DNA of 64,000 nucleotides from Mayamaea pseudoterrestris (lineage: Eukaryota): contig BROI01000029.1 of assembly GCA_027923505.1 (NCBI GenBank), forward strand, positions 248,001 through 312,000, given 5' to 3'. Below, piece after piece: positions 22,771 to 31,939 of the stretch; within the stretch, counting starts at the first letter, position 1; every line of letters begins with the position of its first letter. The position numbers were made by a program, and so were the translations under genes. Under the pieces are notes generated by a model that saw only the letters and a list, made by a program, of their open reading frames with translations, was not told the origin of the DNA and made no database searches.

Positions 22771-23181
22771 GTCCCAGCAGCTAAAAAAGACTTTTGAGTT
22801 CGGTAATGTTCAATTGGAGTGTTTCGCACTCGGGATGTGGATTGGATGATTGGATCAGGTCGTGTTTCTGCTCACCACAAGAATTGCTGCTCACCAATGA
22901 GTGCGCCGTTTCCAAACTTGAAAATGTGCTACAATTTCGGCAGCTCTGCCTCACAAACTACAACCTTCGATGGAGACTAACACTTGCTTGTAGAATAACT
23001 GACTACTATGTGGCTGCAGGCAATGGAGAATGTTCGCTCCATGGCCGTCGGCAGGCAGAAGCTTATGAATGAGGCCGCTCAGTGCTGCATGTCGTACCGG
23101 TAACTTTGTGAACCGATGAGACGCTTCAAAGATCTTCCGCGAACGACGGCCACACAAAAAGCTATCGCCACATCTTTCACC

Positions 23182-24850
23182 ATGGTTGATGCTGCAGCAA
23201 CGGCTGTCAATTCCGAGGTCGGAGCAATAAGCGATCCTCCATGCCGCGTCTTGGCGCGCAGCAAGACCAAGGTGGAGTTTTTTGTGGTGTCGGAGCGAAA
23301 TGGAGGTGCAGCTGCATCAGCCCCTTCTCCGACGGTCCTTCATGCCGGCCCGACATCATGGCAACAGTACGCTCCAGATGGAAGCTGCGTTTATCTGCAA
23401 ACGCCAAAGGGAGTACTCAAGATTGACTTGACGAATGACAAGCTAGAGCCGAATGGAGACGCCACGCCGTTTCTGCAAAGCACGACTGCAAGCGCCATTC
23501 AGATGATGCATGTTTCGCCTTCGGGATCCTTTTTATTGACTTGGCAACGGCCGACTCCCGATGATGCCAATAATCTAAAACTATGGAGCGCTTTAGATGG
23601 AGCTTTACTAGCGAGTTGGCCACAAAAGCAGCTCCGTCGCGAGTCCTGGCCAACGCTACAATGGACTTATGATGAAAGGTACGCCTTGCTTCTGGTTCAA
23701 AATGAAATTCGCGTTTATCCACAAACAACCATACGAGCAGCTGGCAAGGATTCGAGCAATACACGGTTTACGGACAAAATTCGCGTGCAAAACGTTAGCT
23801 GTCTGAGTGTCGCGCCGCAAGCCAAAAACGGCAGCCCCTACTACTTTACCACCTTTTGTCCGGGAGGCAAAGACAAGCCGGCTCGAGGTGCCTTTCAGGA
23901 ATACATTCCTGGTCAACCTGACTTGCCGGCTCGTTTATCAAAATCATTGTTTCAAGCTGAAGAAATGAAGTCGCATTGGAGTCCTCAAGGTGATGCCGTT
24001 CTGATATCGCTCCAAACATCGGTTGATCATTCGGGTCAGTCCTACTACGGCAGCTCCCAAGTCTTTCTCATGGCAGACTTTGTCACGGATGCTGTAGCAG
24101 TCGAAGGCGTCACTCCGCCCGTCATGGCTGTCGAGTGGATGCCTCACCCGGAACGACCGCCGGCCTTTATTGTTGTCGCAGGCAAAATGCCAGCTTTGGC
24201 GTCCCTGCACCACGGCCGCACGGGCAAGCCAACCTTTTTGTTTGGGCAAGCGCACCGCAACACTGTACACTGGAGTCCGCATGGAAGATTCGTGTTGATC
24301 GGAGGATTTGGGAACTTGGCGGGTGGCATGAGCTTTTGGGACAAGAATAAATGCAAGCTAGTGTCGGGGTGTGCGGCGAATGTGAACAACCAGTTGAGAG
24401 CAGAAGCTGTTGTTGGATGCCATTGGTCTCCCGATAGTCGCATGGTGCTGACTAGTACAACATCACCGAGGATGAATGTTGATAATGGCATGCGACTGTT
24501 CAAGTACAACGGAAGCGAACTGAAAACTCTTCCGTGGGACAATGCTGCGTATCGACCTGATCAGTTGTTGGAAGCCACCTTTGTGCCGGCGAATGTTGAT
24601 GTATATCCGGATCGACCGCAAAGTCCCAACCTAGTGGAGCAAGAGCAACAACAATTGCAGAAGCAACAAGTACCCGGCAAGGCAAACGGACCAGTGATTT
24701 TTACCAAAGCTCTGCCTTCGTCATCTGCAGTAGAAGACTCGAAGCCAGTTGCGCGCTACGTTCCTCCGTCAGCGCGAGGAAGGGCAGGGGGCGGAACTAG
24801 CCTGGCGGAACGCATGCGAAAAGAAAAGGAAGGAAGCCTGCAGCAGGCCA
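23182..24850 (+). CDS. EIF2A: Eukaryotic translation initiation factor 2A, 5' part (beta-propeller), interrupted by retrotransposon
   Basis: SGQSYYG, HRNTVHWSPHGRFVLIGGFGNLAG, TTSPRMNVDNG, YVPPSAR motifs typical of eIF2A. Confidence 0.92.
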
Positions 24851-25151
24851 TCTTTGCCGCAGCTGAAAGCGGAAGGAAAAGACTACACTATATGTTACAG
24901 TCGCCAGCGTGGCGACACCATACGGCTTTGAAAGCTGCGTGGTTGCAGATAAGCCCCTGAGCGTGTTGAAGAGCATCCTTTGATCCTCCTTCGCCCTGCT
25001 CGGAGCCATTCTTTTGAAGAAGGCAAGCTCCTTCCAAGCAGCCCCTCCTGTTGTTGTTGTTGTTGTTGCTACAGTCGCTTGTCCTTTGATTCCTTTAGAG
25101 AGCTGCCTCGAGTGCTGCTTTTGACAAGGAAAGAAGATAGAATTAAGTGCA
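24851..25151 (+). repeat. Split direct repeat A1 (301 bp)
   Basis: Matches 31500-31803 apart from one TGT microsatellite unit (6 vs 7 copies). Confidence 0.95.
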
Positions 25152-25158
25152 TTCCTCC

Positions 25159-27313
25159 ATGGCCGCCGTCAATGGAGCTGACGCCGCTGCCGCAGCCGCC
25201 GCCATTCCTTTTGCCGGGGCCACTCTCCCTACGGTCACCTTCCTTGCCCGTTACAGTCAGGCAAGTAATGATCCTTTGAACGGTGAATACAATGGTTTGA
25301 ACGGTCTCACTCGCACTGCCGATCCTCCTTTAACTGCAGCTGATTGCTTTAAAGGTTTGGTCGACACGCCCTTGGAGACCGCTCCCATCCTTGTTGCTGC
25401 CTTGGTCGAGGCCGACCAGCCTCTGCATGGTTGCATTCACGCCATTGTCGGGGCCCAGCGGTACCTTGCCGTTGCAGGTCGCACCAACCGCTGGGACAAT
25501 CGAGTCATCGGTTTTGGTACGGAGGTTTTCCAAGGCACGGCAGGCCTCGTCGAACTGACGGTGGCAGATTTTCATCTCAGTCCATTGAACGGGCACTTCA
25601 CAAATGTGCCAGCGACATTGGCACAAACAATGGAGCGATTGCAAGGCTTGCCTGCTGGCACTGAGTATTTGCCTCCATTGCAGCCGGTTGACGAAGACGA
25701 TGCGACCATTGTCCAAGGTCGTGCGCGGATGGTTCAGGCCTTGCCCGTGCGGTTCGCACCGCTGGTGATTGGGCAGGGTTTTACGCGGCGCGAATTCTTC
25801 GACCGTTTGGCGCCGGCTATTATTGATGCGGGGCTGGAACATGTCTTGACCAACCTTTGCACTTGGCTAAAGCTATTGGTTACTTGCCGAGCCGCTGATG
25901 GAGTGCCTACTATTCCAGGGAATTGCACGAGCCGCACCGAGCTGGGATGCCGATGTGGCCCGGTTCACCTCGACCAACTTGCGGCGCCTCTTGCCGGACT
26001 TGTTCGCCCAACCCGATCCAAATCAAAGTGCTTTGGTCAACCTTCTGGAGCGCCAAGCTAATGATGCAGCCGAAGTCCGAGCCCGTGAAGAGGCTCGCGC
26101 CGAAGCAGCCAAGGCACCCAAGAAAGTCTCCGACATTTTAACTGCGACACAATTACGGCGCACTAGCATCATGCTACGCATTGCTTCACCAAGTGGCTAT
26201 CCCGAACTGCACCACCTCCTAGCCGCCACGGCTGACAAGGACAAGCGCAAGGTAGTGCAAGACCATCTAGTTGAGGGTGCGGTGGCAGCGGGTAACCAAG
26301 ACTATGCTCCTATTGTGACGCCGCACATTAGCCGACGGCTTCAAGATGGAGACTTTGCAGGCGCCGACAAGGATGATTTTAGTGGAGGCATCAATGTCTT
26401 CATGATGGTACCACCCAATCTGACTGTTCTCCAAGGCTCAAACATGTCAGCTGAAGTCCTCCAAGCGGCGCAGGCGCATGACGACATCCTAAGTGGCGGT
26501 CATGCAATCACCTACCAAGATACTAAGGAGCTCCAGGCTGTTACTTCCAAAGTGGTGCTGCCAACCAACTACTTCCTGGCAGCACGCATGTGCCGGGCCT
26601 ACCTAATCCTCCTCACACAGTACTTTGGGGAAGATCATGAGCTTGTCTGCACATTGGAGCATTGGACCAAGACATTTGAAGCCAACATTCCTACCTATCA
26701 GCACGCCTTGGCTAGCCTTGGTGAGCAGGGACCCTCCCTCATGCTGCGAGCAGTCCAAGTCCGCTTCCACCGTTGGTTCAAGACTATGGAGACTTCTCCC
26801 ACCTACAAGGCCGTCCCGGATCTGGCCAGTGTCATGGAGGACTTGGAAATTGGCAATCTCTCTGTCCTGCCTCCTTTGCCTGCCAAGTATTGCACTCAAC
26901 TAAGCAAGCAACTCAACAAGGCAGCCGACATCCCAGGATCCATCAAGGTTGGTAGCAGTGTCAACAGCAAAGGCACTCATACCACCGCAGCTTCTACTTT
27001 GACTGGTGCAAGCGGCAACAGTCCTTCTACCAAGGCGAATGAGGTGGTCATCAACCTGGATTACAACCCAGCCTTTGAAGCCTTCCAGAAGGACAAGCGC
27101 CAACTCCGCTTGATGAGGAAGAATCCCGAGGACAAGAGTTGGCCCACCAAGGATAGCATCCCAGGACTCGCTACTGCTCCCTGCATGGCTTATCATTTGC
27201 GTGGCAAATGTGACTCATTGTGCAAGCGCAAAGCCGACCACATCCAGCATAGTCAGGCAGCTGATGATGCCTTGTTGGCTTGGGCATTGGAGCATCTTGA
27301 GCCCCGCAATTGA
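25159..27313 (+). CDS. Retrotransposon Gag-like ORF1 with C-terminal Cys/His zinc finger; +1 frameshift near 25918-25922
   Basis: Overlapping ORFs 25147-26061 and 25898-27313 join as ...PTIPG/IARAAPSW...; CMAYHLRGKCDSLCKRKADH finger. Confidence 0.75.
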
Positions 27314-30300
27314 CGGTCCGGCGGGCGGATCCCTATATGTTATAATCCGCTGACGCCTGCAACCTCTGCTGTTCCACCATCCAGAGTCGCAGGTCCAGTT
27401 GTCGAAAATGAAGAAGTAGTTCCAGTAATTAAGTCGCCCAGTAGTAAACGTTTTAAATCTACTGTGTCACCTGTCCTATCTCCTGAACTTGGTAAGCAAG
27501 CTGGCGTGCATGTTGTGCAGAAAGAACCATTGTTACTGCCCACACCACGTCTCTTGCCTACTGCTGCCAGGAATGTAATCAAATTGGCCTCTGTCCCCGG
27601 TCCCACTGCGTCCCTGGTCCAAGTCCAAGCAAGTCAACTCCAAGCAAGTCGTCAAGTTGTCCGCCCTGAGTGTCGTCCAACCTTGGCTCCTAGCACCAAT
27701 CCATCTGTTGCCGTCACACCTACACACCAGGCTGTGGCTTCTCCAGGCCCCCTTGAATCGTCTGTCGCCGTCGCACCTGAGGATGTGGCTTCTCCAGGCC
27801 TTCACACCGCTGATGCCTCTCCAGTGGCTGCTCCAGTCCCATGTACTGGCGCCTCCCCAGTTGTGGTGTCACACCAAGCCATGGCTCCACACTTGGTTGC
27901 CAGCAAGGCTGCTCCTACCATGGCACCACACTTGGCATTCAGCAAGGCTGCTCCACTCTCAATGGAAGCCACTGCTGCACCTGCACAGTCACCTGCCATG
28001 GCAACTGGCTGGGCTCCACACTGGGCCTCTCAGCCAAAGGCACACGACCTGGTCTCCCCAAAGGCATCTGCACCTCCTTGCACTTTGCCTGGCAGTCTTC
28101 CTACATCCAAGTTGCCTTCACACACCAACACCTCATCCTTGCAACTACTTGATGATGAATTGGGGCAGCTGGTTCAGGAGGCATCTGCACGTCTTGCTTT
28201 GTCTCCGGATTGGCGTGCCTTTGTGGAGGCCAGCCGCGGCGCCTCTGACTTACAGCCCAGCGTCAAGGATCTGGATCATCCAGCTGCACATTTGCTACAC
28301 CAATTGGATGCACGTGGCGCACCAGCCATTATGCAGAAAAAGCCTTGGACACTAGCACAAAAGCAAATGGCGCTCAAGAGGGGCCCTCACAAGTCTGCCT
28401 TTGAACACACTGCTTTTCTGCGGGAGGAGTTCACTGACATGATCAAGAAAGGCCACTGGACCGTCCTACCAGCCTCACAGGTCCTTGGAATGGAACAACT
28501 CCGACTCAGTCCACTTGGTGTTGTGCCTCAGCGCGACCGGCGACCTCGGACCATCTCCGACTACAGCTACTTTGGGGTCAATGATGACACTGCTGCAGTT
28601 GCGCCACTGGAGTCCATGCAGTTTGGCCGCACTTTTTATCGTTTGCTGCAACGCATTGCTCGAGCCAACCCCCGCTATGGGCCCGTCCACATGTCCAAGT
28701 TGGATATTGCTGATGGATTTTACCGTGTGCGTTTGCTGCCTGGAGATATCCCCAAGCTTGGTGTCTTGTTTCCTCAGTGTGCTGGTGAGGAGCCTCTGAT
28801 TGCTTTTCCACTCACACTGCCGATGGGTTGGATTCATTCTCCACCCTATTTCTGTGCAGTGACAGAGACCATTTGTGACTTAGCCAATCAAGCCTTCCAG
28901 TGTGGTGCCAAGTCACCACCGCCTCACCGTCTGGAGTTACAAGCTCAAACCTTACCAGCTACCACCACTCCAACACCCCTGCCTGGAAGTGTGCCCGCAC
29001 AAGGCTCTGTCCCACCTATTGTGACTGTGGAGGATATGCCCATCAATGATCCTAGTGTGGCGCCTCTTCCTGCTCCACGCCAGCGCTCTGATATCCTCCA
29101 GCGTCCTGTTGCATACAATGACTTGTATGTGGATGACTTGATTGCTTTAGCCCAAGGCAATCCGGATCGGCTGCTAAGGTTGCAACGTGTTCTCCTGCAC
29201 ACATTTGACCAAGTTCTACGCCCACTGGAGCCCACTGACTTACCTGCTCGTCAAGAACCAGTGTCTGTCAAGAAGTTACTCAAAGGAGATGGTGCTTGGA
29301 CCACTCGCAAGCAAGTCCTGGGTTGGTTGGTTGATACCGTCGCCATGACTGTTGCATTGCCAGCCCATCGCCTGGAACGCCTACGTGAGATCCTAGCTAG
29401 TATCCCTCCTACTCGGCGCCGCATTGCCACCAAGCAGTGGCACAAGTTCTTGGCGAGCTGCGCTCCATGTCCTTGGCCATTCCTGGCAGCCGTGGTCTGT
29501 TCAGTTCCTTGCAAGAGGCCTTTCGCCATCCTGATGGTCACTCTGGTCGTTTGCGGTTGACCCAGGCAGTGCATGACTTTCTGGAAGATTTTCGATGGAT
29601 TGCGGCTGGTCTAGAGACACGACCAACACGCATTGCTGAATTGATTCCTGATGACCCGGCTATTGTGGGCACTACTGATGCATCTGGTCGTGGCGCTGGG
29701 GCCGTGGCCTTTGTCTCCATGCCCACCAATGCCCTACAACCAATCTTGTGGCGTGCCAGGTTCCCTCCTCACATTGAGGCGGACTTGGTGAGTTTTGACA
29801 ACCCACATGGCACTATTACCAATAGTGATTTGGAATTGTTTGGGACGGTTCTCCATCATGATGTTTTGGCACACAATTTTGACATACGTGAGCGCACCAT
29901 TCACACCTCCCATGACAACACTCCGGCTGTCGCTTGGCAGCGCAAGGGCTCTACTACCTCCACTGGCCCAGCAGCATACCTCCTCCGATGCCAGTCCTTG
30001 CATCAACGCACACATCGCTATGTTCCCCTCCATGATTACATTCCTGGTCCAGTGAATGAAATGGCGGACAAGGCCTCCCGTTTGTGGCATTTGTCTGACT
30101 CTGAATTACTCACCTACTTTAACACTCATTACCCACAGCCTCTACCTTGGCAACTGTACCAACCACGACCCGCGATGCTTTCTACCATGATTACCGCACT
30201 GTCCAAGACCAGATCCGTGCCGGAGTCGTTCCTTCAAGAGCCGCCTCCGCGGACAAGCATTGGGCCTCATGGTGTGACTTCTGTCTTGAACACCATCTCG

Positions 30301-30672
30301 ACCCTTTCCTCAAAACCTTGGATGACCCAGTCCCAACTCTCCAAGTCTGGGCAACCCGTTACCGCGATGGCCGACTCTCCGCCAGCGGTCAACCCGTCCG
30401 CGCTGCAACAGTGGCGGACGCCATCCGTGCGGTGGGCCAGACGTTCGCCCGCATGGGGTCCCACGACATTCGACAAGATTCCTGTGGCAAAATTGACTAC
30501 CGGCTGCAGCAACAATTTAAATGCTGGCACCGCGAAGATCCAGCCCCTACTCGCGTCAAACCAATTCCGGTCACCATTGTGCAACACATCCTGGCCCAAG
30601 CCTATTCTGGACCAGGCTCACCTGCCCTGCAAACCTTTGCCGACATCATCACCCTGGGTTTCTTCTTCTTGA
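27314..30672 (+). CDS. Retrotransposon Pol: Pro/Ala-rich linker, reverse transcriptase and RNase H; -1 frameshift near 29443-29447
   Basis: LSPLGVVPQRDRRPRTISDYS, KLDIADGFYRV, LPMGWIHSPPYFC, YVDD; RNase H TTDASG, NSDLEL, DNTPAVAW, ADKASR; frame open from 27314. Confidence 0.92.
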
Positions 30673-31295
30673 TGCGCCCTGGTGAGTACACTGGCACCCA
30701 CGGTGGCAACACCCCACCACTACGCCTAGGTGCAGTCCAACTCTGTCTGGGTTCCCGCCGTCTTGATCTCTTTGCTGCACCAGCTGCAGATTTGTTGGCG
30801 GCTTCCCAGGTGTCGTTCACATTTGATAATCAGAAAAATGGTGTCCGCGGTGAAGTCATTAGCCAAGGCCGCACTGGCTTGTTCCATTGCTGTCCGGTGC
30901 TTGCTGCTGCTCGGCGCATTCTTTATTTGCGTGAGCATGGTGCTACTGCCCACACACCGCTTGCAACCTACTGGTGTGCTAATCGTCCTCTTGGCGTCAA
31001 GAATGGGGAGATTACGCGCACCCTTCGCAATGCTGTCATCGCACTTGGTCCTACCCTGGGCTTAGACCCCTCCGACATTGAGGCTCGCTCCCTGCGCGCT
31101 GGTGGTGCTATGGCTCTCCTCAATGGCGGCTGCGATGACAATATTATAAAATTGATGGGCCGCTGGCGTTCTGACGCAATGCTACGCTACCTGCATGGCA
31201 CTGCTGCTCACACCACCGGCTACGCTGCTCGCATGGTCCAAGGTGGCACCTACACCCTGGTCCCTGGCACCTTTGTCCCGCAGCAGCCCATCTAA
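30123..31295 (+). CDS. Retrotransposon tyrosine recombinase (overlaps the pol 3' end, no 5' ATG)
   Basis: FFFLMRPGEY (R), NQKNG (K), CCPV, RSLRAGGA (R), GRWRSDAMLRYL (W, catalytic Y). Confidence 0.92.
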   Translation, partial: HSLPTASTLATVPTTTRDAFYHDYRTVQDQIRAGVVPSRAASADKHWASWCDFCLEHHLDPFLKTLDDPVPTLQVWATRYRDGRLSASGQPVRAATVADAIRAVGQTFARMGSHDIRQDSCGKIDYRLQQQFKCWHREDPAPTRVKPIPVTIVQHILAQAYSGPGSPALQTFADIITLGFFFLMRPGEYTGTHGGNTPPLRLGAVQLCLGSRRLDLFAAPAADLLAASQVSFTFDNQKNGVRGEVISQGRTGLFHCCPVLAAARRILYLREHGATAHTPLATYWCANRPLGVKNGEITRTLRNAVIALGPTLGLDPSDIEARSLRAGGAMALLNGGCDDNIIKLMGRWRSDAMLRYLHGTAAHTTGYAARMVQGGTYTLVPGTFVPQQPI

Positions 31296-31381
31296 CCTAC
31301 CCACCACACTCGCTTCGCTCGTTTCCCACCCGTCTCTTTGGGTGTCCTTTGTCCTCCAAGATGAAAAGTGGGTGGCAAGGA

Positions 31382-31499
31382 GGCGCACGCCTTGGGGCGG
31401 CGAGGAGGCAAATTAAGTAAAATGCCTTACTCTCCACCCAACTGTGTGCCATCCTTAAAACCCTGTAGCTGGAAGTAGTGGCTAAGACGGGGAAACCCG
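31382..31499 (+). repeat. Split direct repeat B1 (118 bp)
   Basis: Identical to 31822-31939; abuts A2. Confidence 0.95.
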
Positions 31500-31803
31500 T
31501 CTTTGCCGCAGCTGAAAGCGGAAGGAAAAGACTACACTATATGTTACAGTCGCCAGCGTGGCGACACCATACGGCTTTGAAAGCTGCGTGGTTGCAGATA
31601 AGCCCCTGAGCGTGTTGAAGAGCATCCTTTGATCCTCCTTCGCCCTGCTCGGAGCCATTCTTTTGAAGAAGGCAAGCTCCTTCCAAGCAGCCCCTCCTGT
31701 TGTTGTTGTTGTTGTTGTTGCTACAGTCGCTTGTCCTTTGATTCCTTTAGAGAGCTGCCTCGAGTGCTGCTTTTGACAAGGAAAGAAGATAGAATTAAGT
31801 GCA
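31500..31803 (+). repeat. Split direct repeat A2 (304 bp)
   Basis: Copy of 24851-25151 with one extra TGT. Confidence 0.95.
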
Positions 31804-31821
31804 CCCACCCTCCCGTCCCTC

Positions 31822-31939
31822 GGCGCACGCCTTGGGGCGGCGAGGAGGCAAATTAAGTAAAATGCCTTACTCTCCACCCAACTGTGTGCCATCCTTAAAA
31901 CCCTGTAGCTGGAAGTAGTGGCTAAGACGGGGAAACCCG
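31822..31939 (+). repeat. Split direct repeat B2 (118 bp), right end of element
   Basis: Identical to 31382-31499; separated from A2 by an 18-bp C-rich spacer. Confidence 0.95.

Follow-up and report, generated by a model that had tools for sequence, protein, structure and literature searches.

The window analysed here is a stretch of 64,000 nucleotides (nt) of contig BROI01000029.1 from Mayamaea pseudoterrestris (contig positions 248,001 to 312,000), and it contains a complete Ngaro-like tyrosine recombinase (YR) retrotransposon. We propose that an alternative intron, from 27492 to 30138, probably allows the element to express its recombinase, so that a single transcript would yield three products: Gag, Gag-Pol, and a Gag-linker-YR fusion. 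This intron had been put forward in a sequence-only reading of the window, which suggested checking whether related elements conserve its donor, acceptor, and phase. All three are conserved, and at synonymous positions that are free to vary elsewhere in these same proteins, which argues for the Gag-YR splicing interpretation.

In the mechanism that we suggest, the element would make one full-length transcript. Unspliced RNA would be translated into Gag, ending at the TGA at 27311, and readthrough of this TGA, aided by a hairpin 6 nt downstream, would extend the product to Gag-Pol. A fraction of the RNA would be spliced from G/GTAAGC (27491/27492; a slash marks the exon boundary) to CAG/ (30138), dropping reverse transcriptase (RT) and RNase H. 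The splice would move the frame by one base into YR, and the same readthrough would then yield Gag-linker-YR. We infer the use of these sites by the spliceosome, the readthrough, and the Gag-YR fusion product from the DNA and its relatives. With less confidence, we lean towards the view that a diatom-wide Ngaro-like lineage uses this combination of recoding and splicing as a module, in which a shared stop signal and a shared exon of 40-122 codons serve both Gag-Pol and Gag-YR.

Conserved splice-like sites on either side of RT and RNase H

The sites are present in the window as the sequence-only reading had described them. At the donor, the pol frame reads CTT GGT AAG C, in which the Gly codon occupies 27491-27493, the exon would end with the G at 27491, and GTAAGC begins at 27492; the donor is therefore in phase 1 of the pol frame (27491-27314 = 177). 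At the acceptor, a TAA at 30120-30122 precedes the open YR frame, and tttaacactcattacccacag ends at 30138 (CCCACAG/). Here 30138-30123 = 15, so that a YR-frame codon begins with the G at 30138, and the codon G/CC joins the frame that follows gag to the YR frame. One base of a codon is left at the donor, and the acceptor coincides with the end of a pol codon, so the join shifts reading into the YR frame. The YR frame is also start-less, as had been noted, with its first Met about 110 codons in and already within the conserved domain. A single GT..AG pair in matching phase is expected by chance in 1 of 3 cases and would be unremarkable alone; it is the retention of the two sites and their phases in diverged relatives that places this pair beyond chance.

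We collected 78 related loci by scanning metagenome contigs with a YR alignment; two peptide patterns close to the YR C-terminus were the sole criterion of choice. The acceptor region is present in 73 loci (the window copy included), which form 59 clusters at 80% YR identity, and 32 clusters hold the donor region, for which the counts were made by hand. Most pairs of loci are only 42-55% identical in YR, so synonymous sites should be saturated. The layout is alike everywhere when searched by tblastn with segments of the window: gag, RT, and RNase H share one frame and YR lies in the -1 frame. Altogether the YR frame has about 950 relatives, and the named ones come from the diatoms Cylindrotheca, Fragilaria, Cyclostephanos, Skeletonema, and Thalassiosira.

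The donor falls in a short peptide, and a phase-1 GT is found within L-(G/S)-(K/E/T/D) in 32/32 clusters. SPELGK of the window aligns with (D/E)-L-(G/S)-(K/E/T/D), which in most cases is found about 105 nt upstream of the RT homology. The Gly codon at the donor is GGT in all 30 clusters that have Gly, and the Ser codon is AGT in both clusters that have Ser. The codon that follows is AAG (13), GAG (15), ACG (3), or GAT (1), and never AAA or GAA. Further out, position +6 is T in 29/32 clusters and position -2 is A in 23/32. The family consensus reads AG/GTRAGT, which is the standard 5′ splice site complementary to U1. In RT and RNase H of the same loci, GGT makes up 22% of Gly codons, AAG 58% of Lys codons, GAG 46% of Glu codons, and TTA plus CTA 19% of Leu codons. 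Two invariant Gly residues were used as controls: that in PxGVVPQ is encoded by GGA (9), GGG (6), GGT (3), and GGC (1), and that in LGELRS by GGC (11), GGT (10), GGG (7), and GGA (6).

The acceptor shows a similar pattern, with the AG at the same codon in 57/59 clusters and moved in phase in the other two. It forms the end of the Gln codon in the pol peptide (Y/F)PQ, and this codon is CAG in 55/59 clusters and CAA in none. Two loci (L035 and L072) have AAG at this codon and thus keep the AG. L050 and L077/78 are without the site; there, a pol-frame CAG with a good pyrimidine run is found farther upstream with the phase unchanged, and the YR frames open far enough upstream to include it. The full motif TAY/TTY CCN CAG, with a pyrimidine-rich stretch before the AG, is present in 55/59 clusters (CCN CAG was scored by eye in L055/57, L059, and L076). 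Across the same loci 41% of Gln codons are CAG. Within the 16 codons upstream of the acceptor, Gln is encoded by CAA 34 times and by CAG 12 times, and an invariant P-Q Gln in RT, our control, uses CAA 10 times and CAG 9 times. In the YR frame, the residue begun by the acceptor G varies among Ala, Glu, Asp, and Gly, and it is therefore the G itself that is conserved there, not an amino acid. About 17 nt upstream of the acceptor is TTTAAC or TTTGAY, which also encodes F-N or F-D in pol and in the window creates the TAA of the YR frame. Both hexamers fit the consensus yUnAy and are candidate branch sites.

Could the GT and AG simply follow from the ELGK and FPQ peptides together with codon bias? 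ELGK and FPQ are indeed conserved pol peptides, but these are the only two places with a fixed synonymous codon, whereas other invariant Gly and Gln residues use all their synonyms. Moreover, clusters with Ser instead of Gly have AGT, and where the acceptor codon is lost an in-phase CAG occurs upstream within a longer open YR frame. We therefore find an origin by chance and protein constraint scarcely credible.

The phases of the two sites are kept together. In all 28 loci that have a gag stop, a donor, and an acceptor, the tail of exon 1 is 1 mod 3 in length and the join is in frame. The joined frames run uninterrupted for 422-501 amino acids from the gag stop to the YR stop in 25 of these loci; two of the others leave the contig end, and one (L071) has a later stop. 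The predicted introns are 1883-2279 nt in the relatives and 2647 nt in the window.

In four loci (L015, L022, L042, and L049) the donor motif lies farther upstream as SELGE and is followed by a long in-frame insertion, as in the window. The window has a second ELG copy at 28157-28175, 3′ of its low-complexity insertion, and this copy is without a donor. We considered a shorter intron that removes only 27498-28156 and rejected it, since by eye there is no in-phase acceptor near this second ELG motif. In the window lineage and the four loci alike, the insertions leave a donor-less copy of the following helix beside RT. Because these long low-complexity insertions arose directly after the donor and keep a donor-bearing ELG motif upstream of them, the exon boundary looks like a domain boundary.

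Entry into the recombinase frame

Many loci have a stop in the YR frame 5 codons before the acceptor, a by-product of TTT AAY or TTT GAY in pol. This stop confines entry into the frame to a narrow interval that holds the CAG. Two conventional routes were examined and set aside. A start codon of its own is rejected for YR, since no more than 16/59 clusters have an in-frame ATG in the interval from the frame opening to 15 codons beyond the conserved start. A canonical -1 frameshift from pol into YR is rejected as well, since this interval of the overlap has a slippery heptamer X XXY YYZ in 0/59 clusters.

The codon at which YR conservation starts is NTG in most clusters (TTG in 22, CTG in 12, ATG in 5, and GTG in 1 of the 59 clusters) and is then followed by G. 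This raises the alternative that both sites are real but not paired with each other: the acceptor would be used with a donor in the leader or early gag, a YR-only mRNA would begin translation at the NTG that overlaps a pol Trp codon, and the ELG donor would serve elsewhere, for example by binding U1 to control premature termination. In Ty1/Copia elements, U1 bound at the donor has two effects, allowing splicing and suppressing premature termination (PMC5580714; this and the other papers cited by PMC number are represented by excerpts). However, the NTG is forced by its overlap with the TGG codon of pol and the -3 base is random, the frame from linker to YR is kept in 28/28 loci, which would be needless if YR started alone, and no second conserved donor turned up in the poorly conserved gag and leader, where no systematic search was made. 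We consider unpaired sites unlikely.

A Pol-YR fusion could also be made by a non-canonical frameshift or other recoding in the overlap, with the splice-like motifs as by-products. YR is always -1 relative to pol, and in P0200, a distant relative, the pol frame continues into YR as a fusion immediately behind FPQ. This explanation lacks the canonical heptamer, however, and leaves 30/30 GGT and 55/55 CAG unexplained; we regard it as very improbable. Two other relatives also have single-frame arrangements: in P0207, pol and YR are one frame from a frame change farther upstream, and in P0122 they are continuous and about 35 RNase H residues are lacking. P0200, P0207, and P0122 may represent a different solution to the same problem, or may be damaged copies. 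In five diatom genomes, the gene models connect pol and YR in five different ways, none of them at the conserved sites, and resemble ab initio guessing.

Several observations weigh against the alternative intron. One search of sequencing runs listed none from RNA, and the DNA contigs of four runs contain no joint of 27491 to 30139. No spliced product was found among the 120 of 947 near-length matches listed, 7 longer proteins, and 150 representatives, in protein collections that do not hold the window's own family (best identity 72%). Copies that lack RT are absent as well, with gag or linker joined to YR in 0/73 loci that have at least 70 nt upstream of YR. The donor of the window, GTAAGC with T at -2, is weaker than the family consensus. 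Diatom introns are usually short, and at 1.9-2.6 kb the proposed ones would be long by comparison. Once base composition is taken into account, the sense strand shows only a modest depletion of further consensus donors, with 10 found against about 27 expected (44 against 73 on the antisense strand). Both sites lie inside coding motifs (ELGK and FPQ), so that part of their conservation is at the protein level, and it is only the synonymous positions that argue for selection on the RNA. Finally, the pairing of this donor with this acceptor is deduced from their phases and the lack of another target.

The gag-pol junction agrees with the readthrough that the sequence-only reading had proposed. 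Wherever a locus has gag as well as RT homology, a single frame runs through the two, interrupted by exactly one stop, and a hairpin follows. The stops in 29 loci are TGA (18), TAG (10), and TAA (1), and the TAG is followed by G in 10/10. Minimum free energy folds pair a conserved GGC as the base of the hairpin in 25/29 loci. Among the folds that were tested against shuffled sequence, a hairpin is found here in 14/15, with z-scores from -0.03 to -5.6; in L004 it starts farther downstream and the GGC is unpaired. The sequence of the inner stem differs between loci and is still paired in single-sequence folds. When the region after the stop was aligned with MAFFT, RNAalifold recovered only the outer 3 pairs (GGC/GCC) because loop lengths differ, and single-sequence folds were used instead. 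A stop, a short spacer, and a hairpin match known stimulators of readthrough, and the arrangement here is likely to be such a signal.

The region after the stop also has features at the peptide level. A peptide X-X-G-(K/W/R)-R follows the gag-pol stop (27311-27357 in the window) and is found at the same place in L001-L077. The linker between the stop and the donor carries a basic cluster of Lys and Arg (such as KRFK, KKRK, KRRR, or KRQR) in 19/28 loci, which may be a nuclear localisation signal common to both fusion proteins.

Comparison with other retroelements

The element has the Ngaro layout of the DIRS order as it is defined in the excerpts of PMC4157794. Like Ngaro-type elements, as described in the parts of PMC4157794 and PMC3783388 that we used, it has the order gag, RT/RNase H, YR, it has split direct repeats A1-B1-A2-B2 of which the internal ones lie downstream of YR, and its YR overlaps pol. 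It is also alike in its lack of a target-site duplication. The lack of a methyltransferase domain sets Ngaro apart from DIRS1/PAT; Pfam detected none here, which is weak evidence because it missed RT and YR too. In the DIRS1/PAT-like elements of PMC3783388 (excerpts), a YR frame without an evident start codon is likewise laid over pol. Those elements, however, keep a long stop-free bridging frame, whereas here, in many members, a stop closes the YR frame only a short distance (5 codons) upstream of the acceptor, and a different way into the frame is therefore needed. How a start-less, overlapping YR is expressed is left open in that text, which merely notes YR as frameshifted or overlapping.

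We found no spliceosomal intron for YR expression and no conserved gag-pol stop with hairpin in the literature on DIRS-order elements that we searched; the papers in which Goodwin and Poulter first described Ngaro and DIRS lay outside this search and may bear on the readthrough. The introns in one DIRS-1 study are artificial reporters (PMC7192593, excerpts). For diatoms, only Cryptons were found reported among YR elements in the consulted parts of PMC4157794, and the brown alga Ectocarpus is reported to have DIRS/Ngaro-like elements (PMC3145265, excerpts).

The nearest analogue that we found is the conserved alternative splicing of Ty1/Copia elements (PMC5580714). In these elements, as excerpts on the EVD shGAG RNA (PMC5580714) and on BARE (PMC3735527) describe, a conserved alternative intron in the coding region gives a subgenomic mRNA beside the genomic RNA. 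Splicing there yields a Gag-only mRNA and raises the ratio of structural to catalytic protein (PMC5580714). In contrast, the splice proposed here would drop RT/RNase H, shift the frame for the integration enzyme, and need readthrough of the gag stop.

There is also a likeness to retroviruses. Retroviruses have one promoter, an upstream 5′ splice site, and a 3′ splice site just before the downstream gene, and the gag-pol junction of the murine leukemia virus type has an in-frame stop, a short spacer, and then an RNA structure. The arrangement proposed for the element resembles both. In retroviruses, however, env has its own AUG and the donor lies in the leader, whereas here the donor is placed 3′ of the gag stop and a readthrough fusion would result. 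Protease and DDE integrase are also missing from the element.

This would be a new expression strategy within a known element class. If true, it would be the first natural spliceosomal intron in the life cycle of a tyrosine recombinase retrotransposon, and it may be a general answer for start-less overlapping YR frames in other DIRS-order elements. With a conserved intron of this kind, subgenomic splicing, known from retroviruses and Ty1/Copia, would reach a third order of retroelements, and a Gag-recombinase fusion is predicted. It also matters for annotation, since the pol-YR gene models in the five diatom genomes miss the conserved sites.

Structure of the element and its relatives

The coordinates of the element and of the proposed signals are collected in Table 1. 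An empty-site contig from runs X1 and X3 links 24850 directly to 31942. The empty-site contig and the element ends agree that the insertion has no target-site duplication, and since runs X1 and X3 carry a diverged allele without the element, the insertion is polymorphic. The host site is the 3′ part of an eIF2A-like gene (PF08662, E 1e-49), found at 23104-24850 and again from 31940 on. The repeats form a split direct repeat in the order A1-ORFs-B1-A2-B2 (ORFs, open reading frames), with the internal repeats downstream of YR. A1 and A2 are 98.7% identical, and their few differences include a (GTT)n run that is one unit longer in A2 (31700-31723) than in A1 (25049-25069).

Table 1. Features of the Ngaro-like element, in positions of the window
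Feature	Position	Strand	Remarks
Whole Ngaro-like YR retrotransposon	24851..31939	+	7089 nt; ends from empty-site contig and repeat ends
Terminal repeat A1	24851..25151	+	Repeat search
gag-like ORF	25159..27313	+	ATG at 25159 to TGA at 27311-27313
Single in-frame TGA between gag and pol	27311..27313	+	Context TGA CGG
pol frame	from 27314	+	Same phase as gag; carries RT and RNase H
Shared exon tail after the stop	27314..27491	+	59 codons plus one base; KRFK basic patch; ends SPEL-G
Hairpin, proposed readthrough stimulator	27320..27357	+	Starts 6 nt past the stop; GGC...GCC base
Candidate 5′ splice site GTAAGC	27492..27497	+	Phase 1
Proposed alternative intron	27492..30138	+	2647 nt; pol coding region when RNA is unspliced
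Low-complexity Pro/Ala/Ser-rich in-frame insertion	27498..28156	+	Directly 3′ of the donor
RT and RNase H homology	28268..30216	+	From homologues
Candidate 3′ splice region	30118..30138	+	TTTAAC, pyrimidine-rich stretch, CAG
YR frame	30123-31295	+	-1 relative to pol
Putative exon 2, YR ORF to stop	30139..31295	+	
pol C-terminal tail overlapping YR start in the other frame (dual-coding)	30139..30672	+	
Repeat B1	31382-31499	+	Repeat search
Repeat A2	31500-31803	+	Repeat search
Repeat B2	31822-31939	+	Repeat search

A Pfam search of the element ORFs (gag, pol, and YR) gave no match, and their assignment rests on homologues. For RT and RNase H, tblastn with segments of the window matches segments that are 42-64% identical, in kept order, in 60+ loci; the pol ORF has a YVDD motif, and PF00078 is annotated on the relatives P0123 and P0127. 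For YR, an alignment of 36 sequences shows K238, R325, W348, and Y356 to be invariant and R185 nearly so (query numbering), and we take these five residues to have catalytic roles. The pol tail beyond RNase H, about 150-180 amino acids, has no Pfam match to a methyltransferase, in a search that likewise missed RT and YR. In nearly all loci the pol frame stays open for 340-660 nt beyond the opening of the YR frame and includes a recurring tail motif like WASTPFSKPSKTKY; this tail over YR is either functional or the mere shadow of the YR frame.

Two short runs of G distinguish the window copy from the run contigs. At 25918-25920 it has one G more than the main contig of each of four runs, and after 29451 (29451-29453) one G fewer than every run contig. 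Each change breaks a frame, gag and pol respectively, that is intact in the majority copies. The majority letters restore gag as one frame and let pol continue through KFLGELRSM into RNase H. The window copy is thus either slightly damaged or mis-assembled at these two places, and the splice-like sites are untouched by both differences.

Several of the metagenome contigs are tandem or circularly permuted. In L005, L051, L076, L068, L077, L078, and L056 another gag follows YR, or two full copies stand head to tail, and contigs in which gag follows YR could be tandem arrays or assembled circles. One further copy, L048 (7978-9143), is 5′-truncated and starts inside RNase H, 11 codons before the acceptor, with about 7.9 kb of unrelated sequence upstream.

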